Shown here one piece after another: positions 39,321-64,000 of a stretch of DNA of 64,000 nucleotides. The DNA comes from Akkermansia muciniphila. GTDB taxonomy: Bacteria; Verrucomicrobiota; Verrucomicrobiia; Verrucomicrobiales; Verrucomicrobiaceae. Both the position numbers and the translations under genes were made by a program. The notes beneath the pieces were generated by a model. The model had not been told where the DNA came from, searched no databases, and worked only from the letters and a program-made list of their open reading frames with translations. Location: NCBI GenBank assembly GCA_945882215.1, contig CAMCWM010000007.1:992-64991 (forward strand). Reading direction: 5' to 3'. The stretch's first letter is position 1. The number at the start of each line of letters is the position of its first letter.

Positions 39321-39350
39321 ACTCCCTTTTGCGCTGCGTATCACCCGTCC

Positions 39351-39926: not shown

Positions 39927-39970
39927 TCCATCGTGCCGCAAGGGGCGGGTTTGGAGAGCGTTTGGGCATC

Positions 39971-41074: not shown

Positions 41075-41092
41075 ACTTCGATTCGAAAAGCC

Positions 41093-42139: not shown

Positions 42140-42154
42140 AAGCGCCTGCGTTCA

Positions 42155-42718: not shown

Positions 42719-42953
42719 GGCTCGGCAGAGGCCCGTAGGCTTTGAGCGCCAACTCCTTGCCGAGAAAGCGCTCGGCGAGCAAGCGATGCAGGGCCTGTGG
42801 TGGCAATTTGGGGTGCTGCTGGCGCAGTGAACTCTGCGTCAACTCTCGCACTGACTGGCTCCACCCTAGAGCCAGGCTCAAGCGTCTAGCAGGCGACATC
42901 GCCTGCAAGGCTCGCAGGCGCATGATCTCCGCAGCGGGGTTGGTGTCGTTCAT
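42711..42953 (-). CDS. 80-aa hypothetical protein, putative partner of the NTase-fold protein
   Basis: MNDTNPAAEIMRLRALQAMSPARRLSLALGW... looks helical. It is translationally coupled to the downstream gene, and I recognised no family. Confidence 0.5.
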   Translation of the reverse strand: MNDTNPAAEIMRLRALQAMSPARRLSLALGWSQSVRELTQSSLRQQHPKLPPQALHRLLAERFLGKELALKAYGPLPSHG

Positions 42954-43056
42954 GACGTCAGAGTGCCACTTGGGTCTGAATTGGCAACTCCACGCATCAT
43001 CAGAGATTTACCTTCAACGGCAGATTCACCACTCTGGCGACGTATGACTGCCCACC

Positions 43057-44496: not shown

Positions 44497-44500
44497 CCTC

Positions 44501-47575: not shown

Positions 47576-47636
47576 GACTGACCACTACGCGGCGAGGAGC
47601 AGGCTTTGATCGCGAGAGGAACCCTGATCGGCGCGT

Positions 47637-48470: not shown

Positions 48471-49363
48471 GCGAACCCATCGTCTATCTGAATGAGCGCT
48501 TTGTTCCCGCCTCGCAGGCAAAGCTAAACATCTACGACCTCGGCCTCGTGCTCGGCGCGACGCTGACGGAGATGACGCGGACGTTTCGGGCCGAGGACCA
48601 TGTGGCGCGGCTGTATCGTTCGCTGAAGTTCTCCGGCATCACGGTGCCGCTCACGCCTGAGGAAATGCTGGCGCGGACGAAGGAACTGGCGGAGGCGAAC
48701 TGCAAGCTGCTCGGCCCGGAGGAGGACCTCGGCATCGTGCATTTCGTCACGCCGGGTGAAAACGCGCTCTATGCAGGCAGCGCGGGGTCTGCGGGGACGC
48801 TGCGGCCGACGATTTGCATCCACAGCTTTCCGCTGCGCTTTGAGATGTGGCGGCATCTGTTCACAGATGGGGCGCATGTCGTCACGCCATCGATCCGGCA
48901 CATTCCGCCACAATGTTTGGAGCCGAAGATGAAGAACCGCAGCCGCCTGCACTGGTGGCTGGCCGACAAACAGTCCCAGGCCGTCGATCCGCGTGCCATC
49001 ACGCTGCTGCTCGATCTCGACGGCAACGTCACCGAGTGCGCAGGCTCGAATTTCGTCATCATCAAAGGCAATACGATCATTTCGCCGACGACACGTAACA
49101 TCCTCTGGGGCGTGAGCCTGCAAACGGTGAAGGAGCTAGCGCCGCAGATCGGCATGGAGTTCATCGAAAAGGATTTCCAGCCCTACGATATCGTAAACGC
49201 GGACGAGGCCTGGCTGACCACCACGCCCTACTGCATGGCCCCCTGCACGAAAATCAACACCACACCCATCGCGGATGGGAAGCCGGGCCCGTGGTTCAAA
49301 AAGATGATCGGCGCGTGGAGCAAGCGTGTCGGGACGAACATCGAAGCACAGGTGATGGAATGA
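48467..49363 (+). CDS. Class IV (branched-chain / D-amino-acid) aminotransferase-family protein
   Basis: MSEPIVYLNERFVPASQAKLNIYDLGLVLG..EPKMKNRSRLHWW..CAGSNFVIIKGNTIISP. Its start overlaps the PIG-L stop as ATGA. Confidence 0.82.
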   Translation: MSEPIVYLNERFVPASQAKLNIYDLGLVLGATLTEMTRTFRAEDHVARLYRSLKFSGITVPLTPEEMLARTKELAEANCKLLGPEEDLGIVHFVTPGENALYAGSAGSAGTLRPTICIHSFPLRFEMWRHLFTDGAHVVTPSIRHIPPQCLEPKMKNRSRLHWWLADKQSQAVDPRAITLLLDLDGNVTECAGSNFVIIKGNTIISPTTRNILWGVSLQTVKELAPQIGMEFIEKDFQPYDIVNADEAWLTTTPYCMAPCTKINTTPIADGKPGPWFKKMIGAWSKRVGTNIEAQVME

Positions 49364-49495
49364 TTCACCATTGTGGAGTTGCCATTCAGGTCGTCAGGGG
49401 CTCGAGTTGAAACATCCACCGAAACACCGCTATTGATCCCGGCGAGCAGGGATCTGTGACTGGTTTATCCCGGTTTCTTGGAGGGAGACGAGCTG

Positions 49496-49524
49496 TTGAA
49501 GCTATATTTACTGTAATTTACATT
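49496..49524 (+). promoter_or_regulatory. Candidate sigma70-like promoter TTGAAG-N17-TACATT in an AT-rich island. The spacer and -10 element contain the palindrome TGTAA-T-TTACA (49512-49522).
   Basis: Read directly from the sequence, 78-106 nt upstream of the first ORF of the pilus-like operon. By hand count, 49491-49590 is about 35% G+C. Confidence 0.25.
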
Positions 49525-49546
49525 AATTCCAGATATTCATGTGTCC

Positions 49547-49561
49547 ATCCCTCAGAGGGAT
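49547..49561. promoter_or_regulatory. Perfect 15-bp palindrome ATCCCTC-A-GAGGGAT (operator-like)
   Basis: Read directly from the sequence, 41 nt upstream of the ATG at 49602. Confidence 0.4.
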
Positions 49562-49601
49562 AAGTCTGGAAACATGAAAACTCCAAAATGAGGCCCCCTG
49601 T

Positions 49602-50180
49602 ATGAAAACGCACCTCCTTACCATCTGCTTAATCGTCACAGTATTGGCCAGTTCTGACACCAAGGCAGACATCCTGCTCGGTGCGCCAGGCGTGCCCGCT
49701 GGCACACGCATCGCGACCAAGGTGCCGTTCATGATCAACTACACTCTGCCGAACTCCTACAAGTTCATCTTCTCTGGCATTCAGGCCAAGGGAGACACGC
49801 TCGGTGCTCCGGGCTCCTCGGGCACGAATGGCAATGGCGGGCAGTTTCACCTTCAGGCCACGGTCTCTGGGGACAGCGGCGGTTCCGAGCGGGCGGGACT
49901 GATCGAGTTCCGCGATATTCAGGACTACAATTCCTCTCCGCTTCAGACGATCCTCATCTCGCCTGTTGCGGTGTTCAAGGCGACCTCAAGCCCGATCACC
50001 ATCAACTTGCAATGGAAAGGCAATGGGAATGCACACAAGCCCAACGGCATCTTCACCATCCTAGGCGAGTACCAAAAGGACCCGCCAATCCCAACAGGCT
50101 CGCTAACCTTTTCCACGGGTGCTTGGATTCTCGAAGAGAGTCCAAACCCCGAGGGGGCGGTGACCATTGTTCGCGAATGA
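49602..50180 (+). CDS. Exported ORFan A (192 aa)
   Basis: The signal is MKTHLLTICLIVTVLASSDTKA. GAGG lies 8 nt upstream of the ATG. It has a Gly/Ser-rich middle (GAPGSSGTNGNGG), and I recognised no family. Confidence 0.7.
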   Translation: MKTHLLTICLIVTVLASSDTKADILLGAPGVPAGTRIATKVPFMINYTLPNSYKFIFSGIQAKGDTLGAPGSSGTNGNGGQFHLQATVSGDSGGSERAGLIEFRDIQDYNSSPLQTILISPVAVFKATSSPITINLQWKGNGNAHKPNGIFTILGEYQKDPPIPTGSLTFSTGAWILEESPNPEGAVTIVRE

Positions 50181-50193
50181 CCCGAGGACTCAC

Positions 50194-50748
50194 ATGAAAC
50201 CTGAACGCATATTCCGACCTGCAACACGCTTCGGCGCGTTGCTTCTTGGGATCATCGCCACCACGGGAATGCTGCATGCCCAGCAGGCGCGGGATGTGAT
50301 TCATGAGGAAGCCCTGCGTCAGCAAGTCGCTGCGGCACCCACACTGAAATCTCACCTGAGTTCCAAAGCCAGGCCGCTCACAAACCAAGCACCGGCCATT
50401 CAAAGCTCTCTGTGGAGAAATTCGATCATCCTCACGGATGGAGAAAAGTTCACTCTCGTGCCCGTCGGCTCCATCCTGCATCTTCCATCTGAGCTGAGAA
50501 CTCGCGTCATCGCCAAGCCACAGGGTGACTTCACTTTTTGGCCAAACTTTTTGAAGCGCAATGCAGCCTGGCTCGCTGCCAAAGAAGTTTCGCTGAAGCT
50601 TTCACGCGGCAATGCCCAGGAAGCGAATGCCTTGCTGAAAAGTCTTTCCCAAGATCCGCATCTTGTCGTCGCGACCTACAAAGGTGGGCCGATCACCATT
50701 CTTGAACCCGCGCACGTGAGTTCGGGCGCCAATCCCACACCGCCATGA
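50194..50748 (+). CDS. Exported or membrane-anchored ORFan B (184 aa)
   Basis: MKPERIFRPATRFGALLLGIIATTGMLHA. The start was trimmed from 50167. Its stop overlaps the next start (ATGA). Confidence 0.65.
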   Translation: MKPERIFRPATRFGALLLGIIATTGMLHAQQARDVIHEEALRQQVAAAPTLKSHLSSKARPLTNQAPAIQSSLWRNSIILTDGEKFTLVPVGSILHLPSELRTRVIAKPQGDFTFWPNFLKRNAAWLAAKEVSLKLSRGNAQEANALLKSLSQDPHLVVATYKGGPITILEPAHVSSGANPTPP

Positions 50749-51830
50749 ATGTGAAAACCGCTTTTTTCTGTTTGTTCACCACTGGCGTGCTCGGGCAGGT
50801 TCCGGAAGCTTGGGTACGTCAGACAGATCTGGCCACCGGTCAAATCTATGACACTCCCATCACGGGAACCGGCGGTGCGTACACCTCGCCTGAACACGTG
50901 AATGCGGGTGGCTCTCTCTTTGAACTTTTTGCACGTGGCACTGCTTGGGATAGCAACATCTACCTGCTCGACACCAAGATCATCGGCACCTACAACCCCG
51001 AGACGTCCATCAGCATCACCTCGGAAGACGACTATGTGCGGGGCGATCCTGCCAGCACCACTTTCGTGAAGCGCACCCGTGCAGACCGCCCCTTCTCGGT
51101 GAACATCCAGGTGCAGGGTCTGGTCGCTGGCAGCACCACCCTGGCAGAGAATTCGGTCTATCTGGCGGTGCATGGCAAAAACTACGACCCGCTGACCTAC
51201 TCGTCGTTGAACCAGGCACAGTATCTGATCGAAGAATCGAATCTGGAAAATGGCACCCACACCTTCGGTCCGATCTATCATCAACTGACATCACCCACGA
51301 TGAGTTCAGGCAATGGGGAGCAGTCTTTCACCATCGTCCGTTACGCCTCCTATCAGGTCCCCGACACCATCCTGGCGCAGCCGAAAGTCGAAATCTGGCC
51401 CGTGGCGTCAGCCAGCGTCAGCAACATCACGGCCGGGCAGGTCTTCATTGATCGCATTCCTTCTCTCGTGGTTGCTCTCAACCATCTTTACCCGGACTCC
51501 CGTACCTACGTACAGATCTACAAGGGCAACCAGGTGCTGGGAACCGCCGGAACGCTCGTCAATGGGACTGAGTTGCGCTTCGGCAGGCACTACAATCCAG
51601 AGCAGACGGAGAGCTCCACCAATGTGCCGCAGAGTCTTTCGGTGTCGATTGATGACCTCTCCAACTACGCCTCCGAGGATGGCACCTACACATTGGAGGT
51701 CATCACCCATACCCCTTTCTTTGGGCGCTCGGCCGAGCGGTTGTATCACATCACCTTTGAAGTGGACCGCGTCATCACATCGCGCGGCCAGATCAGCACG
51801 ATGGAGCTGTCCAGCCCGGTTTCGCCATGA
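50745..51830 (+). CDS. Exported ORFan C (361 aa), beta-rich and possibly Ig-like at the C-terminus
   Basis: The signal is MNVKTAFFCLFTTGVLG. The C-terminal segment EDGTYTLEVITH is typical of Ig-like sandwich strands. It has ATGA overlaps on both sides. Confidence 0.7.
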   Translation: MNVKTAFFCLFTTGVLGQVPEAWVRQTDLATGQIYDTPITGTGGAYTSPEHVNAGGSLFELFARGTAWDSNIYLLDTKIIGTYNPETSISITSEDDYVRGDPASTTFVKRTRADRPFSVNIQVQGLVAGSTTLAENSVYLAVHGKNYDPLTYSSLNQAQYLIEESNLENGTHTFGPIYHQLTSPTMSSGNGEQSFTIVRYASYQVPDTILAQPKVEIWPVASASVSNITAGQVFIDRIPSLVVALNHLYPDSRTYVQIYKGNQVLGTAGTLVNGTELRFGRHYNPEQTESSTNVPQSLSVSIDDLSNYASEDGTYTLEVITHTPFFGRSAERLYHITFEVDRVITSRGQISTMELSSPVSP

Positions 51831-52282
51831 ACTTACCACGACGCCAGCGCCTTCACCCACGTGGAAGTTTGCTGATCGAGGTGTCGATGGCCCTCGCCCT
51901 GACCTCGGCGCTGGCGCTGGTGATCATGCGCGCCTCGCTGCTTTCCATTTCAGGCAATCAATGGACCATCATGCAGACTCTGACGGATGCCTATCTCTCA
52001 CGTGAAAGTGCGTTGTCCAACCGGCTTCCGTTTGCCGATCTCACCAGTGCCGAGTCCACCTGGCCGGAGCTGGCCGATGATCCCCTGCCTGAACAAACCG
52101 TCACGCTGGGACGAGTCGCCGGTGGCCATGCAGTGCATGGAACCTTGAAGCGCTTTCGCACCTCTGAGGTCGCGTCCAATGCGGAGGCCCCGCTGACGGT
52201 GTGGCGGCTGCATTCGATCCTGAGTTATCGCATCGGAAGCCAGGAGTACATGAAAAGCCGGTCCACCCTGCGTCTGCAATGA
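51827..52282 (+). CDS. Minor pseudopilin (prepilin-type N-terminus, Ser at +1)
   Basis: MNLPRRQRLHPRG|SLLIEVSMALALTSALALVIM has a Gly(-1), Glu(+5) and a hydrophobic helix. Confidence 0.75.
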   Translation: MNLPRRQRLHPRGSLLIEVSMALALTSALALVIMRASLLSISGNQWTIMQTLTDAYLSRESALSNRLPFADLTSAESTWPELADDPLPEQTVTLGRVAGGHAVHGTLKRFRTSEVASNAEAPLTVWRLHSILSYRIGSQEYMKSRSTLRLQ

Positions 52283-52809
52283 AATGGCCGCTCCATCGCA
52301 CTCGTCTGAATCGCCGCGGCTTCACGCTGATGGAGGTTTCCACAGCGATGGGGCTGATGGTCATGCTCAGCGGTGCCCTGGTGGTCATGTTGCAGCAGCA
52401 TCTCAGTTTCATGGGAATGGCGCAGCGGCAGTCTTTCCTCGCGCAGGAAGCTCCGCAGATCGGCAACATCTTGGGCCGCATCTTCCAGCAGGCGGATCAC
52501 TTTTTCATCTATACCAGTCGTGAAAGCGCCCTTAACGGAGGAACTCCGGTGATTGAGAATGGCAACGTTGTGCGGCTGTTCTTCAAAACCGCCGTACAGA
52601 CCACTCAGTAACGCTTGATCGCCGCCGAGACAGGCAGCAATGGCACCTCGTTGCGTTTCTATACGCCGCAGCCCGATGGCACAGAAACTTCCTGGTTGAT
52701 CTGCCAGGGACTCCAAGGCGCGACTTTCAATGCCAATGAAGGGATTCTCACGGTCACGCTCACTGGTCCGAACGGCGAAGAGATCACCTACTGTGGAGGT
52801 GCCCGATGA
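52279..52809 (+). pseudogene. Pseudopilin gene interrupted by a single in-frame TAA (52609-52611). The halves are 52279-52611 and 52615-52809.
   Basis: MKWPLHRTRLNRRG|FTLMEVSTAMGLMVMLSG. My codon-by-codon reading gives ..AVQTTQ-TAA-R-L-IAAETGSNGTSLRFY.. in one frame. The second half ends in an ATGA overlap with the next gene. Confidence 0.6.
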
Positions 52810-54755
52810 ACAACCGCGCTCTCAAACGCGACTCGGGCTATGTCTCGCTCCCGATCGTCACCGGACTGGCCATCATGTTCACGCTCAGCCTGACCATGCT
52901 CTTCAAGAGCACGCTCATGAATCGTGACCAGGCTTCGAAGACACAGCTGCGTGTGGACTACCGCCAGCGCGAGGAAGCCCTTCTGCGAGCGCTCGTCGCC
53001 ACCTTTCCTGGCAAGGCAATGGAATGCATGAAAGCCAATCACGCCGAGGGAGCTGCCCACGCCTGGAGCACGATCTTTGCCGAGGCCGTGACGCTGTCGT
53101 CCTCGTCTCAACGTCTTTCGCCTGAAATTCTGCAAAGTCTCAATCTGGGTGGCAAACTCAGTGGTGATGTTGGCGACCACAGCAGCGTCGAGGTGAGGAG
53201 CTGGATCACCTCGCTGACCGGTGAGGCCGGGCAAGTCACACCCGGCACCACCACGTATGCTGAAATTTTTGCCCAGCCTGCCTTTGCTGGAAAAGTGCCA
53301 CCACTGCTGGACACAAGCGCCGAGCTGCAAACTGCCGATGCTCTGCGGCCCATCGTCACGCCGTTGAAGCGCTACGTCACCCAGGTTCCAGGCCTGCTTG
53401 CGGATGTGGCAGTGCATCCAGTTTACAATTTGATCCCCTACCCCAACATCCGTTTTGGGTATGCCGCGCCCGGAGAACCATTTGTGGCAAAGCGGAACTG
53501 GTGGGCCTTCACCGTGAACTACGGCAGCAGCAACAGCACCGTGGCCCGTCATTACGTGCTGTCGTTGTATGAGATCCCCTCACAAATGCCGATCGAGGCC
53601 GCCACCTTCGCCGCCATTGGCACACATCAAGATGGCACGGCGTGGAATGCGGACATGGTAAGCATTGAGGGTTCCGTCTATGCCGCGCGCATGAGTGTCT
53701 CAGGGGCTTACGGTGCCGCACGGCTCGCAGGCCGCAGCGGCATCGAGATGACAGCGGACCTCGACCTTGGTGGTGTCTCCGTGGGCTCTGATTTTGACGC
53801 TCTGGGCGAACGCGAACGTCTCCAGGCCGAGCAGGGCACCGATGTGCTTCCGGTCGCCTTGTCGGCCAACTCCGGGCGTCTCACCTTTCTTCCTCTGCCC
53901 ACGGGTTCTGGTTACCTTCGTCGCAGCCCTCCGGGGAACACGCTGAATGCGTTTGAGGAATACACCTCTGGAGGTCAGCGCTGCCGAATCACCGTCGAGG
54001 CCACGTCCATGGTAAGCTACGAAGATCAAACACCCACGGCCATCCGTGTGCGTTTTCCAAATCCTGCCGGCGGCACGAGCGAGATTGTTCTGCAACGCGG
54101 CAGTAACTGGCCGACGGTTTTTGAACCTGGAGGCTCCATCATCCCCTTCCAGACCGAACTGACCAACAACAATCGTTCCTGCCTCACCTTTCATCCATCA
54201 CTGCTGGATGCCTGGCTACTGGCGCAGGGAGCAGCCAGTGTGGCGACCAACAACAGCCTCTACTTCGATGTGGATCCAACCCTGGACCCGATGAATGTGC
54301 GCGTCGTCAGCGATCCACCGGCCATGGAAGACATGTGTGTCATCATCCGCCGGGGGAAGGATCTCACAAACTACACCGCCGGACTCAGCATCATCGCGCC
54401 ACTGCGGGTTTATGTGGGTGATGATCTGAACGCCATCCCTGCAGCGACCATCCCCGTCGGCTCGGGCCTGGTGGATAGCACCGTATTCTATCCGCCGCTC
54501 TCCATCTTTGCCGCCGAGTTGCGCGTGGGCACCACTGGATTCAATCGCCCCATCGAGCACCATGGGCAGCTCGGCAGTCTTGCCACAAGCGGTGCCACCG
54601 CCTGGCAACCGCTGGACATGAAATCCGGCAGTGATGACGCGGTGCATTCCGACAGCATTTCCGCCGATCTCAAGCCGTTGCGCAGTCCCGCCGAACTGCC
54701 ACCGGTTCATCCCATGAACTGGTTGGTCGTCATAGAAGAGATCCCTCAAGACTGA
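52806..54755 (+). CDS. Large GspK/PilX-like minor pseudopilin (649 aa), lacking Glu+5
   Basis: MNNRALKRDSG|YVSLPIVTGLAIMFTLSLTMLF has a single N-terminal hydrophobic helix followed by a large domain with no family I could recognise. Confidence 0.65.
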   Translation: MNNRALKRDSGYVSLPIVTGLAIMFTLSLTMLFKSTLMNRDQASKTQLRVDYRQREEALLRALVATFPGKAMECMKANHAEGAAHAWSTIFAEAVTLSSSSQRLSPEILQSLNLGGKLSGDVGDHSSVEVRSWITSLTGEAGQVTPGTTTYAEIFAQPAFAGKVPPLLDTSAELQTADALRPIVTPLKRYVTQVPGLLADVAVHPVYNLIPYPNIRFGYAAPGEPFVAKRNWWAFTVNYGSSNSTVARHYVLSLYEIPSQMPIEAATFAAIGTHQDGTAWNADMVSIEGSVYAARMSVSGAYGAARLAGRSGIEMTADLDLGGVSVGSDFDALGERERLQAEQGTDVLPVALSANSGRLTFLPLPTGSGYLRRSPPGNTLNAFEEYTSGGQRCRITVEATSMVSYEDQTPTAIRVRFPNPAGGTSEIVLQRGSNWPTVFEPGGSIIPFQTELTNNNRSCLTFHPSLLDAWLLAQGAASVATNNSLYFDVDPTLDPMNVRVVSDPPAMEDMCVIIRRGKDLTNYTAGLSIIAPLRVYVGDDLNAIPAATIPVGSGLVDSTVFYPPLSIFAAELRVGTTGFNRPIEHHGQLGSLATSGATAWQPLDMKSGSDDAVHSDSISADLKPLRSPAELPPVHPMNWLVVIEEIPQD

Positions 54756-54764
54756 ATCCCACCC

Positions 54765-55919
54765 ATGTGTACCGCCACTTCCACCAACAACATCCTCGGT
54801 GATCTCGCCAAGATCTTTGCCGGGCGTGAAATCTCCGATGTACAAGTTCGCACAGGCGGACTGATCTATCTGCACACCAATCGCGGTCTGGAGATCGCCG
54901 AGAGTTTTGGCATCCAGGATGCCGAAGCCGTGAGGCGCCTGGCCGAGGCGCTCTTCATGCGCCAGTCCGTCGAGATCTGGACAGATACGGATGCCGTCGG
55001 CAATGCTGACCGGATGTGGGAGATGGTGCGCAGCCGCCGGGTCATCGACTTCAGTTGTGAAGAAGGCGCGCTCGGCTCCCCGGTGCGAATGCGTGTGCAG
55101 GTGCATCTCAGTGAGCACGGCATGGGCGTTACCTGCCGCTGGCTGCGCGCAAAAATCAACCAGCTCGAGACGCTCGGCATCGATCCGCTCATCTCCGACA
55201 GCCTGCGCGATCTGATGCAGCGTCGTTTTGGCCTGGGGCTCATCACCGGTCCCACGGGCTCCGGTAAATCCACCACGCTGGCCGCCATCCTTGACTGGGT
55301 GCGGCGTCATTTCCCCAAACACATCGTCACCATCGAAGACCCCATCGAATATCGCTACGACGCGATGATGGACGATCCCAACCAGCCTGGTGTGCGGTTT
55401 CCAGCGCCATCCCTGGTCACACAGCAGGAGGTGGGAAGGCACACGTTGTCGTATCAAAGCGGTCTGAAGGAAGTGCTGCGCAAAACGCCCAACATCATCC
55501 TCATCGGAGAAATTCGTGATCGTGAAACGATGGAGACCTGCATCGAAGCCGCGCAGACGGGCCACTTTGTGCTCTCCACACTGCACACCCGTGGCGCGGT
55601 GAAGACAATTGACCGTATCCTCGAATTTTTCCCCAAAGATCAGCAACCCGGCATCCTGCATCGACTGAGCGAGACGCTGACCTTTGTGCTCTCCCAAGGC
55701 CTGCTCACGGGCTTCAATGGCCGCGTGCTTGTCACCGAATACCTGCAAAACACCAGCGAAGCTGTGGCTGCCGGTATGCGCGCCTATGACGGCAGCGCCA
55801 CCTCCCTCGCCGATGCGCTTCGCTACAAAGGCAATCTGCGCTGGGATCAGAGCCTCATCAATCTCTACCGAGCCGGCCACATCTCCGAGGACATCTTCAA
55901 CGCGAACCTGCTGGGATAG
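54765..55919 (+). CDS. pilT: PilT/PilU-family type IV pilus retraction ATPase
   Basis: Walker A is GLITGPTGSGKST, the Asp box is HIVTIEDPIEY, Walker B is PNIILIGEIRD and the His box is GHFVLSTLHT. It is 384 aa and has no T2SSE_N domain or Zn-Cys cluster. Confidence 0.88.
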   Translation: MCTATSTNNILGDLAKIFAGREISDVQVRTGGLIYLHTNRGLEIAESFGIQDAEAVRRLAEALFMRQSVEIWTDTDAVGNADRMWEMVRSRRVIDFSCEEGALGSPVRMRVQVHLSEHGMGVTCRWLRAKINQLETLGIDPLISDSLRDLMQRRFGLGLITGPTGSGKSTTLAAILDWVRRHFPKHIVTIEDPIEYRYDAMMDDPNQPGVRFPAPSLVTQQEVGRHTLSYQSGLKEVLRKTPNIILIGEIRDRETMETCIEAAQTGHFVLSTLHTRGAVKTIDRILEFFPKDQQPGILHRLSETLTFVLSQGLLTGFNGRVLVTEYLQNTSEAVAAGMRAYDGSATSLADALRYKGNLRWDQSLINLYRAGHISEDIFNANLLG

Positions 55920-56814
55920 GCGGAGCTGCACTCGATGATGCGGTGCCAGGCGGCAACAAAGGACGGATCATCTCGCTGATGCGGGAGAGCAGCTTCGCAT
56001 GGTCTTCGAACTCCTGGCGACGCACCGCCGGGACGCCATCCCACCAGCCTTCCGTTTGGGCGGTGTTGCGCAGATTCCGATAGCGCTCCAAGCAGCGCTC
56101 CAAAGCATGCCATTGGCTGATGACCGCCTTGTTGTCGCGGCGCAGGTTGCCGGGTTGCAGTTGGTCATTGAGCAGATTGATGGCGGCACCTGCGCCGGTC
56201 AGAGCATCGGACAAACTGCCATGTTCACGCACACCATAAGCCATGGCGCTCTGCGCCAGAGAGTCGATGGCAGACCGGGCGGCTTCCGGCGATTTGGTGC
56301 GGGAGGCGATGTGAAAGTGCAGAATCTCGTAAAGCGTCGCATCACCAGGATCGAGCTGATAGGCGAAGCGCAGCCGCACATCGGCTGCGGCGTTGAGATA
56401 ATTCTGATGTGCTGCTGATAACGGCAAGGTGCTGGTGCGCTTGGTGCGGCTTTTTTCGAGCCGGGTGAGATGATCGATACGGCTCTGCAACCATGAGACA
56501 TCCGCTTGGACCTGCGGCGGAGGTTTTGGCATGCCCTTTCGAGCAAAGCGACCCGGCGGTGGTGGAGGTGGCGGAGTGCCTTGTGGAGCTTTTGTCTCGA
56601 CGGCTGGGACCGCGCTCTCGCCACCATGCCAGTAGCTGTAAAGCGAGTCGCGAATCAAACGCGCAGCCAGACTGCCATAGGCGCTTCCTGGCAGCGCAAA
56701 GGCCGGCGGGGGAGCTGTTGCCTGCAAGCTCCTCTGCGAGCAGGACAAGGCATGTCCCGCCCACCAAAGAACGCTCGCGGCGGTCAGAGTCAGGAGCGTG
56801 TGCGGAAGAGACAT
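55897..56814 (-). CDS. Membrane-anchored hypothetical protein with a poly-Pro linker and a helical C-domain
   Basis: MSLPHTLLTLTAASVLWWAGHAL, then GTPPPPPPPGRFARKGMPKPPP. It overlaps the permease end by 25 nt and the converging pilT end by 23 nt. The coding call is less certain than for its neighbours. Confidence 0.5.
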   Translation of the reverse strand: MSLPHTLLTLTAASVLWWAGHALSCSQRSLQATAPPPAFALPGSAYGSLAARLIRDSLYSYWHGGESAVPAVETKAPQGTPPPPPPPGRFARKGMPKPPPQVQADVSWLQSRIDHLTRLEKSRTKRTSTLPLSAAHQNYLNAAADVRLRFAYQLDPGDATLYEILHFHIASRTKSPEAARSAIDSLAQSAMAYGVREHGSLSDALTGAGAAINLLNDQLQPGNLRRDNKAVISQWHALERCLERYRNLRNTAQTEGWWDGVPAVRRQEFEDHAKLLSRISEMIRPLLPPGTASSSAAPPIPAGSR

Positions 56815-57569
56815 AACCCAAAGATGGAAATGGCGGCGCCTTGCAGGCCCAGCGTGCCTGCCACGCCAATGAAATCAGCGGCTGGCAGCGGACCCATTTT
56901 GAAAACCAGACGCGGAGTCAAATCCGCCAGATGATAGTGCGGCAGCGCCAGCCAGAACGATTGCAACACGCCCGAATCCGCACCTCCGAGCAGTGGTGCC
57001 AGCCACGCGGCACCAAACAGGCCCACAAACAGGAGTCCTGTGGGAACCATGAAGGCAATGACCTCCGCTGTGCGAGTGCCCAATGCCACCGCCAGCATCA
57101 ACAAGGGAGCGGCACAAAGGCTGTAGATGAAGGCATACTGTAGAACGAGCGTCGTCCACATCTGCGCCTCCTCAGGCCGTTTGGGCAAAGTCCAAGTGAG
57201 GCAAAAGATCACCGCGATGAGCACCACGGCCAGCATCCACACCAAAATGGCCGCGCTGAGTTGCAGGCACTGGCTGATCCTGCCAGTTCCGCCTGCATGC
57301 AGGTGCTCCAACATGCCTTCACACCGCATTCGATGCCCGAGCGCCGAGGCTTGAAACGGCAGCCAGGTAAAGAGCGCGATCCAGGCATAAACCCAGGCAG
57401 CCTGAGCACGTGCGGGCTGGAGAATCTGCGGATTTTCCTCCCACGGTGTGAGCAGCGGTGCGATCCAGATGAAGAGGCCCGCTCCGAGCAGCAGCAGCCA
57501 GCAACTGCCGCGCCCCATGAGTCCGGCGAGGCTGAGGCGAAATAAAGGCCATGCACGCAAGGAACTCAT
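56790..57569 (-). CDS. ABC-2-type permease-like polytopic membrane protein
   Basis: It begins MSSLRAWPLFRLSLAGLMG and has about 6 hydrophobic segments. The start was trimmed from 57677 to 57569, giving an ATGA overlap with the ABC ATPase stop. Confidence 0.68.
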   Translation of the reverse strand: MSSLRAWPLFRLSLAGLMGRGSCWLLLLGAGLFIWIAPLLTPWEENPQILQPARAQAAWVYAWIALFTWLPFQASALGHRMRCEGMLEHLHAGGTGRISQCLQLSAAILVWMLAVVLIAVIFCLTWTLPKRPEEAQMWTTLVLQYAFIYSLCAAPLLMLAVALGTRTAEVIAFMVPTGLLFVGLFGAAWLAPLLGGADSGVLQSFWLALPHYHLADLTPRLVFKMGPLPAADFIGVAGTLGLQGAAISIFGLCLFRTRS

Positions 57570-58246
57570 GATTGCAGATTGCGGTAGGTTTCCATCCATG
57601 TGCTGCCGCTGCGCTCCTGGGCGTGACGCAACTGCCCGCGCGCGATGGTCAGCAACGAGTCCGCCTGACGCACGCATTCCAGTTCATGCATGATGACCAA
57701 GCGCATCGTGCGCGTGCCTGCGGCGGCCCAAAGCTGCGTCACCTGCTCACGTGTCTCGGCATCCAGGCCGGTGAGCGGCTCGTCCATGAGCAGCACGCTG
57801 GTTTCGCTTTGTGCCGCCTTCACCTCGGCCAAAATCAAAAGCACTTTCTGACGGTTGCCGCGTGAGAGCTTGCCGATGGGAGTGGTCAGATTCAGCCGCA
57901 GTGTCTCGGCCAGCTCTTCTGCGGAGACAAGCGATTCACCCTTGAACCAGGCGCGGAAAAAAGTGCGCGATTTCATCTCAGGATCGACGCGCAGCTCATC
58001 AGCGAAGTAATGCACCTGGGCGTCTGTTTTCACCCGGCCTTTCAGCGCAGGAGACAAACCGGCCAGCGTGCGCAGCAACGTTGTTTTGCCTGTGCCGTTC
58101 GGAGCCACCAGCAGGTGCAGACCCGTGCCGGCATGGATGTCGTCAGCAACTTCGACGAGGCATTGGGCGGCACGTTTCCAAGGCAAACCGGTGCGGTAGC
58201 CGAAGCGTGTGCCACTGGGGATATGCAGAAGAGTTTCAGAAGCCAT
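57566..58246 (-). CDS. ABC transporter ATP-binding protein
   Basis: Walker A is APNGTGKTTLLRTLAG, the signature is LSRGNRQKV and Walker B is VLLMDEPLTGLD. The start was trimmed from 58282 to the ATG at 58246. Confidence 0.85.
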   Translation of the reverse strand: MASETLLHIPSGTRFGYRTGLPWKRAAQCLVEVADDIHAGTGLHLLVAPNGTGKTTLLRTLAGLSPALKGRVKTDAQVHYFADELRVDPEMKSRTFFRAWFKGESLVSAEELAETLRLNLTTPIGKLSRGNRQKVLLILAEVKAAQSETSVLLMDEPLTGLDAETREQVTQLWAAAGTRTMRLVIMHELECVRQADSLLTIARGQLRHAQERSGSTWMETYRNLQS

Positions 58247-58263
58247 GCGAGAATGAGGTACGT

Positions 58264-58674
58264 TCACTGTCCGGCGTCCCAAAGTCCATCACTTCCCTTC
58301 AAGGAGGGATCATAAACGGACGTACCCAGCATAAAGCGAGGGGGCATGACCGTGTGGTCCACGGTAAGGGTGTCGTCGTCCAGACTCCTCACCACAGGCA
58401 TCGTGCTCCAGCCCTGCGGCAGATAGACCTGCAACTGCACCGTGCTCACTTCGGCAATGTCAGCCGTGGGATGATCGGACATGTAAGCGCGCTGGGCGGC
58501 AAAGACGGCCTGAAGGGACACTGCGGCATCCTTGCCACGCTGCCAGTCACGCACGGTTGAAATGTTCATGCCAACGAAAGTGGCCAGTCCCAGCAGCAGT
58601 CCGATCACGAGACTGATCTCGATCAGCGTGAATCCTGCGTTGCACCTGGCTTTGTGCGAAGAGATCGTTTTCAT
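58264..58674 (-). CDS. Major (pseudo)pilin with a canonical prepilin cleavage/methylation site
   Basis: MKTISSHKARCNAG|FTLIEISLVIGLLLGLATFVG. It is 136 aa. Confidence 0.85.
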   Translation of the reverse strand: MKTISSHKARCNAGFTLIEISLVIGLLLGLATFVGMNISTVRDWQRGKDAAVSLQAVFAAQRAYMSDHPTADIAEVSTVQLQVYLPQGWSTMPVVRSLDDDTLTVDHTVMPPRFMLGTSVYDPSLKGSDGLWDAGQ

Positions 58675-58677
58675 GAT

Positions 58678-59043
58678 TCAGGATTTCGGCGTGATGATCT
58701 GGGCCACCTGGGACTTGGGAATGATTTTCACGGCACCTTGCCGCACGTTGAGCATTGTTGCAGAAACCGTGGGGGCCGCCTGAGATGCAGGCAGGCTCTT
58801 CGTCAACTCCACAGGCAAGGTGGCGCGACGATGAATGTACAAAATGCGGGCCCGGTCCGGATTGGTGATGAGGGTCGAAGCGGGCTGCTGTGTGGAGGCC
58901 AATGTCACTGGAGCAACCGCCGCTTTGACAGGTGTTGGGGCAGGCATTCCGGGGATCGGCCGCGGGACCAGCTTGGGTGGATCAGCCGCCAAGGCCGCAG
59001 CGGAGGGAAGAAGCAGGGTGAGAAGCAGGGATCGTGTTTTCAT
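58678..59043 (-). CDS. Small exported Pro/Ala-rich hypothetical protein (121 aa)
   Basis: The signal is MKTRSLLLTLLLPSAAALA. It sits between the platform gene and the pilin gene, with gaps of 15 and 3 nt. Confidence 0.6.
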   Translation of the reverse strand: MKTRSLLLTLLLPSAAALAADPPKLVPRPIPGMPAPTPVKAAVAPVTLASTQQPASTLITNPDRARILYIHRRATLPVELTKSLPASQAAPTVSATMLNVRQGAVKIIPKSQVAQIITPKS

Positions 59044-59058
59044 AAGGATGAGTTGAGA

Positions 59059-60276
59059 TCACATGTTGCCTGACTGCATCATGCGCGGCCCCATCAGGAA
59101 GATGGGCAGCATGGAGCCAGTAAAGACAAAGCCGATGAGCACCACGGCCATGGCCAAGGTGATGAAATTGATGACCTGCGTGAAGTCCGCCATGATCGCG
59201 GCGGTATCTTCCTCATAGATGTCACGCAGGAGCTCAAGTTGCTGCGGCAGGGAGGCCGAACGCTCGCCGATGCCGATCATGTGGATGACCTGGGGATCAA
59301 GCGTGGTGTTGCGCTTCAGGGCCTCGGCAAACGGCACGCCGGATGATTCATAAACCTGCGAGGCCTTGATGAAGTCCGCATACATCGGCGTTCCATGCAA
59401 CACACGCGCAGACAAGGCGGATGCGCGGGCGAGGTTGATGCCATTGGCATACAGCATCTGAAGCGTGCCGATGTAGGCGCTCTGGCGCAGTCCCATGACC
59501 AGCTTCATCAGCAGCCGCCAATACTTCATAAGGAAGACCAGCAGCTTCTGCCTGAAGTCCGCCGAGCGGAACAAGGCGGTGATGAAAGCCACAAGGCCAA
59601 TGACAAAGAAGGGCCAGACCTTCTGCACCACATGACTGATCGCAAAGATCACGACCGAGATCTGATCCGGCTCCTGGCGCACGCTTTTCAGGGTCTCCTC
59701 CACTTGGGACACGACAAAAATCTGCGAATAGATGAAGAGGCCGATTTGAAACAGGATCACCAGCGATGGCACCAGCAAGGCAGTGCGGATTTTGCTGGCA
59801 AACATGAGCTCGATCTTGATGCGCCGCGCGAGGGACGCGAAGGCCTCGCCAAGCTGGCCAGCATCCGCACCGGCCTCAATGATCGTGATGATGGTGCCAT
59901 CAAACTTCTGTTCCTTGGCAAAGGCGATGTGAATCGGCAGCCCGGCCTCCAGGCGGTTGCGAATGTTCATCAGCGACGATTGCAACACCGGATCAGGCAG
60001 GCCCTGCGAGTAGTACAGCAGGGCATCGGCGGTGCTGATGTTTGCCTTCAGCATGGAGGCGAGCCCGCGGAAAAGCTTGATGAGTTCCTTGCGCGATACC
60101 GGCTTCTTCGACTTCTCGCTCTTCGGCGTGCCTGAGAGTGATTTGATCAACGCCACGCGGAATCCTGGCTTGCTGGCGAGCAGCGCGGCCTGCTCACGGT
60201 TCGGCGCTTCACACTCGAGCACCTTGGAGATCTCGGGCCGCTTGATGTTGCGCAGAGTGACTTGGAAGGCGTTCAT
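59059..60276 (-). CDS. GspF/PilC-family inner-membrane platform protein
   Basis: It is 405 aa with the two-repeat T2SSF architecture. Hydrophobic segments lie around LLVPSLVILFQIGLFIY, VWPFFVIGLVAFITALF and INFITLAMAVVLIGFVF. It sits directly after the E ATPase. Confidence 0.85.
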   Translation of the reverse strand: MNAFQVTLRNIKRPEISKVLECEAPNREQAALLASKPGFRVALIKSLSGTPKSEKSKKPVSRKELIKLFRGLASMLKANISTADALLYYSQGLPDPVLQSSLMNIRNRLEAGLPIHIAFAKEQKFDGTIITIIEAGADAGQLGEAFASLARRIKIELMFASKIRTALLVPSLVILFQIGLFIYSQIFVVSQVEETLKSVRQEPDQISVVIFAISHVVQKVWPFFVIGLVAFITALFRSADFRQKLLVFLMKYWRLLMKLVMGLRQSAYIGTLQMLYANGINLARASALSARVLHGTPMYADFIKASQVYESSGVPFAEALKRNTTLDPQVIHMIGIGERSASLPQQLELLRDIYEEDTAAIMADFTQVINFITLAMAVVLIGFVFTGSMLPIFLMGPRMMQSGNM

Positions 60277-60279
60277 GAC

Positions 60280-61971
60280 TCAAGATTCATAGGTGAGATC
60301 CAGCACCTTTTTCAGGGCATCGAGGTCGGTCTTGCCCTCGGCCATCAGTTTCAAACCGTTGTCCCGCAACGAGGGCAGGCCGGACTCCCGGCGCACTTCT
60401 TGTTCGAGCTCAAAAGGGGTGATCTCGCCTTTGGCCAGCTTGTCGCCCAGCTTCGGGCTGATGGGCAAGATCTCCAGGATGGCCGTGCGTCCGGCATAAC
60501 CGCGCCCTTTGCAGTCCGGGCAGCCCTCTTTGTGATGCACAAACACCGGACGTGTGGCCCAGGCTGGATCGAGATGGAAGAGACGAATCTCGCGCTCCGG
60601 GATGCCTTCGGTGCGTTCTTTGCAGGCGGGACATAGCAGCTTCACCAATCGTTGAGCGCAGGCTGCTTTCAGAGTCTGCGCGATTTTCCAACGCTCCATG
60701 CCAAGCTGCTGAAAGCGCTCGATGATCTGCGAAGCGCGCGGGGTGTGAATGGTGGTGAGTACTTTGTGACCGGTGATGGCGGCCTCGATGGCCAGTTCCG
60801 CAGATTCGCGGTCGCGCACCTCGCCCATGAGGATGACGTCAGGGTCGGAGCGCATGAAGCTGGCGATCATCGGCTTGAACTCGGTTGAGTCGCGCAAGTC
60901 ACAGTGGGTCACGCCAGGAATCTCGTCTTCCACCGGATTTTCCAGCGTCAGGATGTTGTCCTCGGGATGATTCAGCTCACGCAGCATGGCATTGAGCGTG
61001 GTTGATTTGCCGGAGCCCGTGGGGCCTGACATGACAATGATGCCGGAGGGCACGGCCATGGCTTTGTCGAGCTCGAACAAGGTCTCCTCATCAAAAGCCA
61101 GCGTGCCCATGCCGAGCCGTGCTTCCAGATGCGTCTTGTCCAGCAGACGCATGGTGACGTGGTAACCACGATAGGTGCGATGCCGCTCATAACGCACACC
61201 GACCGCGCGCCCGTAGTAGCTGGCGGTGAAGCGTCCGGAAATGCCCGGGCGTTTGCTGCGCTCCTCAGGGGCAAGACGCATGAGATTGAGCAGAAAGGCA
61301 TCCACACGATCCCGCAACTTCACCGGCATATCGACGCGCACACCGAGATCGCCATCCACACGAAAGCAGTATTGAAAGCTGGCCTTCTCCGTTTTGATGT
61401 GAATGTCCGAGGCGTGCTGCTTGATCGCATCACTGACCATGCTGGCCACGAGTTGGGCGATCGGCTCGTCGTATTGGCGCGTGACATCGAAATCGGGAGT
61501 TTCATTGGAGAACTCCTCCACCTCCACCGCCTCGAGTTCCGCACGACTGGGTCCCGAGGAGTTGGAGGAGCCCTCGATCACTGCCGAAACCTCGGAGGCG
61601 AGCGTGACCACCTTCAGCACTTCATCCTCTGGGAAACGTGCGGCGCAATAGTCGTCGGCGCGATAGTCCCATGGATTGGCGACAGCCAGCAAAACCTGCT
61701 GTGGGCTGCGGCGCAGCGGCACAAACATGCCGCGAGACATCACGACGGGATCGCAGTAGCCGACGAACTCTGCATCCGCCATCTCACGCACCTGAGGAAA
61801 GGCCGGCAGCCCTGAAGCACGACCGACAGCGCCCAACATGCGCGTTTTCGACGAGCGGCGCACGAGAGCCTCATCCGACTGCATTTCCTGCCCGGCCGTG
61901 GCCGCCCGCAACTGGCTGATGATCAGCCGCTGGATGGTGTCATTAAACTCAATGCCAAGGTTCAGGTTCAT
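60280..61971 (-). CDS. GspE/PilB-family secretion/assembly ATPase
   Basis: It has a T2SSE_N-like N-terminus. Walker A is IIVMSGPTGSGKSTTL, followed by LTLENPVED and ILMGEVRD, and the His box is GHKVLTTIHT. The tetracysteine is CPACK..CPDCKGRGYAGR. Confidence 0.9.
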   Translation of the reverse strand: MNLNLGIEFNDTIQRLIISQLRAATAGQEMQSDEALVRRSSKTRMLGAVGRASGLPAFPQVREMADAEFVGYCDPVVMSRGMFVPLRRSPQQVLLAVANPWDYRADDYCAARFPEDEVLKVVTLASEVSAVIEGSSNSSGPSRAELEAVEVEEFSNETPDFDVTRQYDEPIAQLVASMVSDAIKQHASDIHIKTEKASFQYCFRVDGDLGVRVDMPVKLRDRVDAFLLNLMRLAPEERSKRPGISGRFTASYYGRAVGVRYERHRTYRGYHVTMRLLDKTHLEARLGMGTLAFDEETLFELDKAMAVPSGIIVMSGPTGSGKSTTLNAMLRELNHPEDNILTLENPVEDEIPGVTHCDLRDSTEFKPMIASFMRSDPDVILMGEVRDRESAELAIEAAITGHKVLTTIHTPRASQIIERFQQLGMERWKIAQTLKAACAQRLVKLLCPACKERTEGIPEREIRLFHLDPAWATRPVFVHHKEGCPDCKGRGYAGRTAILEILPISPKLGDKLAKGEITPFELEQEVRRESGLPSLRDNGLKLMAEGKTDLDALKKVLDLTYES

Positions 61972-62606
61972 GAGGCAAAGTGACGCTGCATGAGCACCTG
62001 CCAGATGGGCAGGTCAGTGAGAAAGGTGAAGACAAAGGGCGATTCGCCGTCGGACATGCGGTTCAACTCCTGGCTGATCCAAAAGGACGCGACCAGAGCC
62101 GAGACGGGATTGAGGGAGGCGACATGGACGATGCTCGTCTCGCCAGCCAAGGTCGCAGGACAACCGAGGGCCGTGCAGACCGGACGCAGGCTGGGGCAGT
62201 GGTCGTAAAGCGCCGAGGCCTTGCCGGACAAGGGGCCAAAACTCCAGTAATGCACGCGGTCATTCAGGCTGTTGCGCAGCAGTTTCTGCATGCGGGCCAC
62301 TTCTTCATCGACAGTGAGCGAATGCTTCTGCGCCTGGGTCTGGGCAGTGAAATTCAAGAAGTCTGGCATCAAACTGGAGGCCGTCCCGAGCTTCTCTCCA
62401 TAAGCGGCCAGCAAAGGCGCGCCCTCCGCATCCGACAGATAACCACCCTGCTGAAGATACATCACCGTCGTTGTCGCGATGCGATCCAACACAGGTCGCA
62501 GACTGTTGAGGTCTGTTTGCGCCGGGAGCGGGAGATTTGGGAGAGGCGAGGACATGGGGTGTTCGGTTCGGCGGGCGCTCGTGGGTTCAGTGAGGTTTCT
62601 GAACAC
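61968..62606 (-). CDS. Hypothetical protein with a C-terminal T2SSE_N-like segment
   Basis: ..LAGETSIVHVASLNPVSALVASFWISQEL..FVFTFLTDLPIWQVL parallels LLLAVANPWDYRADDYCAARF..LKVVTLASEV of the adjacent ATPase. The start is uncertain (GTG at 62606 or ATG at 62555). Its stop overlaps the gspE-like start (ATGA). Confidence 0.55.
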   Translation of the reverse strand: MFRNLTEPTSARRTEHPMSSPLPNLPLPAQTDLNSLRPVLDRIATTTVMYLQQGGYLSDAEGAPLLAAYGEKLGTASSLMPDFLNFTAQTQAQKHSLTVDEEVARMQKLLRNSLNDRVHYWSFGPLSGKASALYDHCPSLRPVCTALGCPATLAGETSIVHVASLNPVSALVASFWISQELNRMSDGESPFVFTFLTDLPIWQVLMQRHFAS

Positions 62607-62616
62607 AGTCCACGGT

Positions 62617-64000
62617 TTACTGACCGCTCGCCTTCTTCGTGAACAGGCGCTTTACCCATGACTGCTTCGGCTTGACGGGCGTCACGGGAACGGTTTCTGC
62701 GGTATTGACGCTGGGAAGGTTTTGGTACCAGGCACCTTGAGGAAGATCGATGCCGGTGTCCCTGATGTCATTAGGCTGCATGCCGGAGAACTCACGCACG
62801 TGCCAGTTGACCTCGGGAAGGGCCTCAGAACTCGATGCGTCATAAACGCGTGGCGTGATGACAAAGACCAGGCTGACCTGTTCCAGCTTCTTTTTGTCGG
62901 AACTGAAGAGCCTGCCGATGAGCGGGATGGTGCTGAGGACCGGCACTTTGTTGCCGCCGTCGCTCGAGTTGTAATCATAGAAGCCGCCGAGAAAGAGCGA
63001 CTGTCCCGCAGGAATGCGGCTGATGGCTTCAACCGTGGACTCGCTCACGCGCGGAAACACATTGTTGGTCCGCCCCGGGATGAGTTCGACGATCTTGGCC
63101 ACGCGAGGACGCAATTTCATACGAACGGTGCCGTCAGGCAGCAGTGTGGGCGTGACGGAGAGTGTGACACCGATTTCGCGGTTCTTCTCCGGCTCCTCCG
63201 TGGCGCTGGGATCTTCTGCGTCGATTTTATAGCGCACTTTGTCCGTGATGTTCTGACCGGCGGCAGTGTTGGTGATGTCCGACGTGATGACCGGAAAGCG
63301 ATCAACGATGGAGATGATGCCCTGCTCATTGTCCTCCGTGATGATGGTGGGGCAGGCCTCCTGGGTGACGAGATCGGCGTCCTCCAGCGCACGCAGGATG
63401 GCCTGCACCTGCATGTTGTCGAAGACCAGCCCGGACCCTTCGACATTGATCTTGTTCATCGAGAGCGTCGGAGCGAGGGGATTTCCCGTTCTGCTCAGAG
63501 TGTTGATGTCCGGAAGGTTGAACAGCGCATTCAAGCTCTGCCGGGCGATCAGGTTGGTGCCCGTGTCTCCCAGAGAGCGGCTCCAATCCACGCCGACCTG
63601 GCGGCCCTGGTTGCGCTTGATGCGCAGGACCCGGACGTTGACCATGATCTGCGGCTTGGCCTTGTCGATCCCTTCGAGCAATTTGCGCACGCGTTCGAGC
63701 TTGATGCTGTTGTCGCTGACCAAAAGCGTGTTGGTTTTCTCCTCAAACTCGATCTGCCCGACCTCGTGAGTGAGCATGGGACGGATGATAGACTTCAGCT
63801 TTTCGAAGTCGGACTGCGCTGCGTTTGACGAGCCACCGCCCCCTTCCGAGTTATTCGTCGGCGCGGCGCTGGACATGTTGCGATTCAGAGGAGCGCCACG
63901 CAGGTACTTCAGAGCGTAGCTCATCACCTCGACCGGCAGCTTCGCGAGCTGGGCCTCATTCATGAGGCTGACACTGGAACGCTGCCGATGCAGCGTAAGT
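62617..64000 (-). CDS. Secretin (GspD/PilQ family), N-terminus beyond the window edge
   Basis: The C-terminal secretin signature is VPVLSTIPLIGRLFSSDKKKLEQVSLVFVITPRV. My reading of 63964-64000 shows the frame stays open upstream of the track start (..LTLHRQRSSVSL-M), so the gene is 5'-truncated by the window. Confidence 0.88.
   Translation of the reverse strand, partial: LTLHRQRSSVSLMNEAQLAKLPVEVMSYALKYLRGAPLNRNMSSAAPTNNSEGGGGSSNAAQSDFEKLKSIIRPMLTHEVGQIEFEEKTNTLLVSDNSIKLERVRKLLEGIDKAKPQIMVNVRVLRIKRNQGRQVGVDWSRSLGDTGTNLIARQSLNALFNLPDINTLSRTGNPLAPTLSMNKINVEGSGLVFDNMQVQAILRALEDADLVTQEACPTIITEDNEQGIISIVDRFPVITSDITNTAAGQNITDKVRYKIDAEDPSATEEPEKNREIGVTLSVTPTLLPDGTVRMKLRPRVAKIVELIPGRTNNVFPRVSESTVEAISRIPAGQSLFLGGFYDYNSSDGGNKVPVLSTIPLIGRLFSSDKKKLEQVSLVFVITPRVYDASSSEALPEVNWHVREFSGMQPNDIRDTGIDLPQGAWYQNLPSVNTAETVPVTPVKPKQSWVKRLFTKKASGQ

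Follow-up and report, generated by a model that had tools for sequence, protein, structure and literature searches.

The last part of the DNA stretch that we analysed, a window of 64,000 nucleotides of contig CAMCWM010000007.1 (GenBank assembly GCA_945882215.1), carries a gene cluster that we read as a lineage-specific type IV filament machine of the Verrucomicrobiales. The machine is probably retractile and combines platform parts like those of type II secretion systems (T2SS) with a PilT-family ATPase and an ATP-binding cassette (ABC) module resembling PilG-PilH-PilI (PilGHI). We give this reading a probability of about 60%, and we think that it is best seen as a lineage-specific variant of type IV filaments rather than as a new category. 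An original prediction, made from the sequence letters, had described the locus as a T2SS/type IV pilus hybrid that fits neither canonical class. The second part of this claim is borne out, with no core component reaching any curated NCBIfam equivalog cut-off for type IVa pili (T4aP), T2SS or mannose-sensitive haemagglutinin (MSH) pili and the core proteins lying far below these cut-offs. The first part stands insofar as a PilT-family ATPase is joined to a GspM-like protein and to a PilM/N protein built like GspL, while the GspK and T2SSE_N labels that went with it do not hold.

Open reading frame (ORF) listing and translation gave seven plus-strand ORFs (p1–p7) and nine minus-strand ORFs (m1–m9), tightly packed and converging at 55.9 kb. 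The plus genes end at 55919, and the minus genes reach from the end of the window back to 55897. Sixteen of the about 20 genes of the cluster fall inside the window; the other four (u1–u4) belong to the same minus operon. The features are the following:

49364–49601, no strand: AT-rich spacer of 238 nt, likely a promoter region, GC content 0.47 against 0.60 for the window
49602–50180, plus: p1, 192 aa, signal-peptide-like N-terminal segment, no known family
50194–50748, plus: p2, about 184 aa, signal-peptide-like N-terminus, no known family
50745–51830, plus: p3, 361 aa, signal-peptide-like N-terminus, no known family, ATGA overlap with p2
51827–52282, plus: p4, minor pilin with G/SLLIEV, 151 aa, one transmembrane (TM) segment at 15–33
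52279–52809, plus: p5, minor pilin with G/FTLMEV, in-frame TAA at 52609–52611, weak N_methyl and TIGR02532 match
52806–54755, plus: p6, giant pilin-like protein with G/YVSLP, without Glu+5, 649 aa
54765–55919, plus: p7, PilT-family ATPase, 384 aa, T2SSE 2.5e-44
55897–56814, minus: m1, Pro-rich protein, third gene of the ABC module, 305 aa, overlapping m2 by 25 nt
56790–57569, minus: m2, ABC-2-type permease, 259 aa, weak ABC2_membrane_3 match (1e-3), about 6 hydrophobic segments
57566–58246, minus: m3, ABC ATPase, 226 aa, ABC_tran 1.3e-11
58264–58674, minus: m4, pilin with G/FTLIEI, 136 aa, reaching the TIGR02532 cut-off (17.8 against 16.3)
58678–59043, minus: m5, Pro/Ala-rich, signal-peptide-like N-terminus, 121 aa, no Pfam or NCBIfam match
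59059–60276, minus: m6, GspF/PilC platform protein, 405 aa, T2SSF 3.6e-25
60280–61971, minus: m7, extension ATPase of PilB/GspE type, 563 aa, T2SSE 6e-84, MshEN 25.3 bits, CPAC...CPDC
61968–62606, minus: m8, 195–212 aa, no TM segment, ATGA-coupled to m7
62617–64000, minus: m9, C-terminal 461 codons of the secretin, Secretin 9e-33 plus Secretin_N, cut by the window end
beyond 64000, minus operon: u1, pilin with G/MTLIE, 144 aa, N-terminal helix about 99% conserved among orthologs
beyond 64000, minus operon: u2, 613 aa, actin-like PilM domain, one TM helix at about 387–405, periplasmic domain
beyond 64000, minus operon: u3, GspM-like, bitopic, 187 aa
beyond 64000, minus operon: u4, exported, 204 aa

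Three features lean towards T4aP: the PilT-family protein p7, the full-length match of m7 to the PilB of Myxococcus xanthus, which is its best match in the Protein Data Bank (PDB), and the PilM-like fold of u2. For p7, the best NCBIfam model is pilT_fam (PilT/PilU, TIGR01420), and every top hit in the PDB is a PilT (162 bits, with GspE at 103); p7 is a probable retraction motor. Compared with the solved structures of PilT, the protein also carries an insertion of ~13 residues at residues ~197–209 (55353–55391; MMDDPNQPGVRFP), in which the family conserves DPNQPG. The extension ATPase m7 misses the cut-offs of both PilB (TIGR02538, 300.7 bits against 675.65) and GspE (297.2 against 630). The platform protein m6 gives 123.5 bits with GspF (cut-off 424) and 96.8 with PilC. 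The secretin scores 133 bits with GspD (cut-off 351), 125.8 with PilQ (TIGR02515, 284.35) and 107–108 with MshL (TIGR02519, 250.2); it is also under the SctC cut-off, and no AMIN domain was reported.

These matches confirm most identities that had been assigned from the letters alone: the PilT-family ATPase in the plus operon, the GspE/PilB ATPase with CxxC..CxxC, the GspF/PilC platform, and the ABC ATPase with its ABC-2-like permease, the latter by a weak match. The secretin was also correctly named, but it is not complete in the window, since its frame runs without a stop from the first ATG to base 64000 and past the window end. The full protein, of 577 aa with a signal peptide, was read in an identical metagenome contig (L001) and in a 99%-related assembly (L082). 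The metagenome assembly of L001 (ENA ERZ27280265) holds the locus as two shorter contigs, of 9.4 kb and 11.0 kb (L001 and L084).

In L001 and L082 the minus operon extends about 5.6 kb past base 64000, with the four genes u1–u4 ahead of the secretin. The statement that no GspC/L/M or PilM/N/O/P is visible holds for the window, but the GspL- and GspM-type proteins u2 and u3 exist just past its end. Modelling u2 through a 99%-identical homolog (pLDDT 83.8) gave an N-terminal actin-like domain, a TM helix, a coiled coil and, in the periplasm, an alpha/beta domain, with BT_3980, PilM (1.4e-8), FtsA and cyto-EpsL (5e-6) as the best Foldseek hits; according to this model, u2 is a fusion of PilM and PilN, which is the architecture of GspL. 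The GspM/XpsM model hits all 12 of the u3 orthologs scanned (best 3.8e-11), whereas u3 of the window strain reaches 22 bits against a cut-off of 60; the PDB profile search of u3 gave chance-level matches only. The position of u4 suggests a role like that of PilP or GspC.

The GspL-type one-chain build of u2, with cyto-EpsL among its fold hits, and the GspM match of u3 lean towards T2SS, as do the slightly higher scores of GspF for m6 and of GspD for the secretin and the weak matches of u1, whose only named family is GspG (17 bits against a cut-off of 88.85). Together with the two to three Sec-type exported proteins that are co-conserved in the operon, they speak for the main rival explanation, a T2SS-like secretion machine in which a short pseudopilus would push p1–p3 (and m5) through the secretin, while PilT would reset or dismantle the pseudopilus. 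We consider it rather unlikely. The proposal of the original prediction, that the pseudopilus might export or display the co-encoded ORFans, would be one of the two readings in contention. Canonical T2SS have no retraction ATPase, yet PilT is kept here throughout; moreover, GspC with its PDZ domain and GspH–K are not matched, the Gsp equivalog cut-offs are missed widely, and in fold the cytoplasmic domain of u2 resembles PilM more than EpsL. A DNA-uptake (competence) pilus, meaning a retractile filament used mainly for natural transformation, seems improbable to us. Competence T4aP do use a motor of the PilT family, a secretin and short pilins, but genes of the ComEA, ComEC or DprA type are not seen in the cluster or its flanks, and nothing points specifically to DNA binding.

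The reading as a single filament machine, with the ABC module as part of it, is supported by synteny, for which all 20 proteins were searched by tblastn against the retrieved loci. The giant pilin-like protein p6 has 436 relatives, with 84% identity to that of Prosthecobacter fluviatilis, 82% to that of Brevifollis gellanilyticus and about 55% to that of Roseimicrobium; the window organism is a relative of Prosthecobacter and Brevifollis. When a single genome was scanned for each GTDB species, p6 turned up in 297 species genomes. The 80 loci that were retrieved all bear the label Verrucomicrobia, comprising Verrucomicrobiaceae, Akkermansiaceae-type metagenome-assembled genomes, Oceaniferula and a few labelled Chthoniobacter. 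A profile search of 1.84 billion representative proteins closed the p6 family at 261 representatives, and its weakest members were each time called "hypothetical protein" in a look-up of names.

Genes p2–p6 occur in essentially every locus having enough flank. For close relatives, downstream genes were counted in the 27 loci whose downstream flank measures 9 kb or more, and the distant loci are those in which p6 is about 35% identical. PilT follows p6 in 26 of the 27 close loci and adjoins the cluster in 21 of 25 distant ones. In 17/27 close relatives the complete minus operon converges on the plus genes as it does here. In distant loci a single strand carries the genes, arranged as p2-p3-p4-p5-p6, ABC ATPase-permease-m1, PilT, u1, u2, u3, u4, secretin, m8 and PilB, with p2 and p3 divergent in some of them. 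In 27 of 32 distant loci, fewer than 400 nt separate the end of p6 from the start of the ABC ATPase, and m1 moves together with m3 and m2. From these shared patterns we conclude that the ABC module and both operons are one conserved gene set, and that the convergent two-operon layout is a lineage-specific local rearrangement of a cluster whose genes share one strand in distant relatives. The original prediction had staked itself on the co-conservation of the two operons, and it stands on this point because they are co-conserved across the order, ABC module included.

Within this set, m3, m2 and m1 sit side by side and are conserved together with the pilus genes, as expected of a PilGHI-type module. 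No NCBIfam equivalog cut-off is reached by m3. The permease m2 overlaps m3 by ATGA, and its relatives carry PF12698. For m1 no family match was found, and its PDB profile search remained at chance level. A homolog search with m2 for PilI-like relatives outside the phylum returned Verrucomicrobia-labelled proteins only, and both the m1 and the m2 family seem to be restricted to Verrucomicrobia. It is very hard to believe that the ABC transporter is unrelated to its neighbours and that the two operons belong to separate systems lying next to each other by chance: nine of the 27 close relatives have no minus-operon gene within 10 kb of PilT and the ABC proteins match no pilus-specific family, but the cluster retains its ABC genes in two different gene orders and across p6 identities between 89% and 34%, and distant loci place them between p6 and PilT, a synteny that disfavours such a coincidence.

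Four of the proteins have the class III signal peptide that is typical of T4aP pilins, with Gly-1 and Glu+5 conserved in p4, p5, m4 and u1, and Glu+5 missing in p6. The G/SLLIE, G/FTLME and G/FTLIE motifs pointed out beforehand are confirmed, being conserved across orthologs. In p4 the two residues are kept in 76 orthologs, and its N-terminus was linked to those of p5 and m4 by hhalign, which also related m4 to u1 with a probability of 98%. A Pfam scan of 62 orthologs of p4, p5, m4, p2, p1, m5 and u4 found N_methyl alone. The second pseudopilin, p5, was recognized correctly by its motif, but its end was misplaced. The gene is interrupted by a TAA, and the 194 nt (65 codons) that follow, taken originally for a gap, hold intact in-frame pilin sequence that overlaps p6 at its end by ATGA. 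All of the ~70 orthologs are uninterrupted at about 176 aa and have the same overlap, the closest of them with Glu at the TAA codon; therefore, the 194-nt gap is coding. The gene is intact (176 aa) in the 95%-identical relative GCA_047513905.1 and is a 110-aa stump in the window strain's own assembly. The TAA is explained by a nonsense mutation of recent origin or else by an error in the sequence.

The giant protein p6 lacks Glu+5, since its conserved Gly-1 is followed by YxxLP. In this respect its first description as a 649-aa GspK-like protein without Glu+5 was right. The comparison with GspK was dropped, because neither Pfam nor NCBIfam supports it and Foldseek found no PDB entry matching the p6 model at E<0.001. 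The AlphaFold2 model (pLDDT 73.6) has an N-terminal helix of 63 residues (14–76), and the C-terminal strand MNWLVVIEE is nearly invariant. Tip complexes use a GspK/PilK-type subunit without Glu5 and a terminal beta-strand (PMC13533445), and p6 is in our view the probable tip subunit.

If the cluster encodes a retractile filament, as we favour, the parts could work together as follows. By analogy with GspK/PilK and TadG/CpaL complexes, p4, p5 and p6 would form a complex priming the fibre, with the Glu5-less p6 at the tip. The ATPase m7, acting on m6, would then polymerise the u1 and m4 pilins through the secretin, while u2 and u3, an L/M-like pair, would hold m7, and u2, u3 and u4 would align the machine. 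The PilT-like ATPase p7 would retract the fibre. The exported proteins p2 and p3 might ride on the tip or be delivered by it, as tip partners or cargo. Finally, the ABC module may aid the biogenesis of the pilus, as PilGHI does in Myxococcus.

The three genes with signal peptides that were predicted at the start of the plus operon are there, each with a signal-peptide-like N-terminus and without family matches. Pfam and NCBIfam scans of p1 gave nothing, and neither did those of p2, nor the Pfam scan of p2 orthologs. For p3 the Pfam, NCBIfam and PDB profile searches were all negative, the PDB matches being at chance level. All three are present in 30/30 close relatives; in the distant ones p2 and p3 are each found in 28/29 loci and p1 in just 4/29. 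We regard p3 as a candidate tip partner or cargo. In one distant locus (L079, 4741–6411, minus strand), the divergent operon of a p1-like gene, p2 and p3 runs on into a gene resembling sigma factors of the extracytoplasmic function (ECF) type (Sigma70_r4_2) and into a gene for an unknown protein of 297 aa. The sigma-factor-like gene may be a dedicated regulator; it is absent from this window.

In the minus operon, m5 was seen in close relatives only, and it is not called as a gene in L082. The position of m8 between the secretin and PilB is kept in distant loci. The T2SSE_N-like label that m8 had received gained no support, with Pfam, NCBIfam and PDB profile searches negative and an hhalign probability of 0.3% against the PilB N-terminus. 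The ratio of nonsynonymous to synonymous substitution rates (dN/dS) against three relatives was 0.03–0.26 in all 14 genes tested, with 0.12–0.15 for p1, 0.16–0.20 for p2 and 0.13–0.26 for m5. Such values indicate purifying selection on all of these genes, and because of them the genes without a known family can be taken as real.

Several points weigh against the reading of the cluster as a retractile filament machine. The matches of the platform, the secretin and the pilins lean slightly to T2SS. The putative motor p7 is under the curated PilT cut-off (253.3 bits against 319.1) and does not have a clean AIRNLIRE motif, which is degenerate here (AVAAGMRA; AVRxGI in the family). There is no detectable link between p6 and GspK or any solved fold. 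No prepilin peptidase was found in the cluster or the window, a motif search of the window included. The roles of p1–p3, m1, m5 and m8 are purely inferred. Pili, retraction and secretion are predicted here from genes alone. Moreover, the minor pilin p5 is interrupted in the window strain and, therefore, the machine may be impaired in it.

The general layout of the locus had been described accurately, from the AT-rich break at 49.4–49.6 kb and the two operons meeting at 55.9 kb to the ATGA overlaps (at the starts of p3, p4, p5, m7 and m2) and the 25-nt overlap of the permease and Pro-rich genes. The convergent genes p7 and m1 share 23 nt at their 3' ends (55897–55919), where no terminator-like hairpin was found. 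In the spacer, scans for the sigma-70 consensus and with Rfam gave no match, and the Rfam and promoter/terminator scans of the locus gave nothing informative. The left flank (35819–49363) holds DUF1501, sulfatase, lactonase, GFO/IDH oxidoreductase, PIG-L deacetylase and class IV aminotransferase genes, a content typical of the Planctomycetes-Verrucomicrobia-Chlamydiae group and unrelated to the pilus cluster, and divergent unrelated genes (PSCyt, DUF1501) lie upstream of u1. With both flanks unrelated, the system therefore comprises about 20 genes in about 20 kb. Horizontal transfer was considered and set aside, as the GC content of the locus (0.54–0.63) is like that of the remaining window.

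Going a step further, one might tentatively propose a distinct and still unnamed branch of type IV filaments restricted to the Verrucomicrobiales, which would be retracted by PilT, have a GspL/GspM-type platform as in T2SS and MSH, require its own ABC-2 exporter, and carry a giant Glu5-less tip pilin of novel fold with two to three exported partners; we find this stronger claim doubtful. Fimbriae have been described on cells of Verrucomicrobiaceae, and such a branch, if it exists, could be the machine behind them or a retractile secretion device. Whatever its rank, the cluster is a clean case, conserved across the order, in which a retraction ATPase is joined to platform parts of the GspL/GspM type. 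It also defines new protein families, namely the giant putative tip pilin p6 and the families of p2, p3, m1 and m8, and cultured hosts for tests exist in Prosthecobacter, Brevifollis, Roseimicrobium and Verrucomicrobium. The usual classes for type IV filament machines are T4aP, type IVb pili, Tad, MSH, Com and T2SS, and hundreds of them stay "generic", 884 systems in a survey of the superfamily that does not mention Verrucomicrobia (PMC6668835).

Compared with the T4aP of Pseudomonas aeruginosa and M. xanthus (Pil), the cluster is alike in its two ATPases, one of PilB type and one of the PilT family, in its PilC-type platform and its secretin, and in having class III pilins, a set of minor pilins and a PilM-type domain with an actin-like fold. 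It differs in that one chain joins this domain to a TM helix and a periplasmic domain, instead of there being separate PilM, PilN, PilO and PilP, and in that the partner of u2, u3, matches GspM and not PilO. Moreover, the secretin is short and has no AMIN domain found, PilY1, FimU and PilV/W/X are not matched, all equivalog cut-offs are missed, and one cluster encodes the whole system, ABC module included. With T2SS (Gsp, including the compact chlamydial D-E-F-G order) it shares the GspL-like one-chain protein, the GspM-like protein, short pilins, the order secretin-ATPase-platform, and a large tip pilin without Glu5 in the position of GspK. Unlike T2SS, it has a PilT-family gene inside the cluster, no match to GspC or to GspH/I/J/K and no GspK fold match for p6, and the Gsp cut-offs are missed.

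The MSH pilus of Vibrio is encoded by mshIJKLMNEGF plus pilin genes, and MSH pili are retracted by PilT. Its order of a fused PilM/N-type protein, a PilO/GspM-type protein, a small exported protein, a short secretin, the ATPase and the platform resembles this cluster, and the m7 ATPase has an MshEN domain. The differences are the MshL score of the secretin (107 bits against a cut-off of 250) and the presence of PilT and the ABC module inside the cluster; MshM/MshN-like matches did not turn up in general family scans of the minus-operon proteins.

In the same phylum, Akkermansia muciniphila has the Amuc_1098-1102 "type IV pili" cluster, with a similar order of a pilin-like protein, a PilM-like protein, two small proteins and a secretin. 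That secretin, Amuc_1098, has about 800–900 aa with a fused TPR domain (PMC4960237), and its NCBIfam model NF042912 scores 66 bits against 750 on the secretin of the window, over the C-terminal 70 residues only. A link between the two clusters was rejected, with no Amuc-named family in an NCBIfam scan of u1–u4 and 41 distant orthologs; the Amuc_1098-1102 cluster is a different system. The large pilin-like tip proteins TadG/CpaL of Tad pili supply their own terminal beta-strand (PMC13533445). Like them, p6 is large, with a pilin-like N-terminus and an invariant end strand, but no sequence or fold match between them and p6 was found, and the rest of the machine here is not Tad-like.

The ABC module has its closest counterpart in M. 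xanthus, where pilG, pilH and pilI mutants are without pili and the module is needed for piliation (PMC3724824, PMC6060248). The likeness is one of arrangement, a three-gene module of ATPase, polytopic permease and third protein amid pilus genes. Kept in the cluster over a long evolutionary distance, the transporter described here offers a second, independent lineage in which the long-unexplained PilGHI-type module can be probed.

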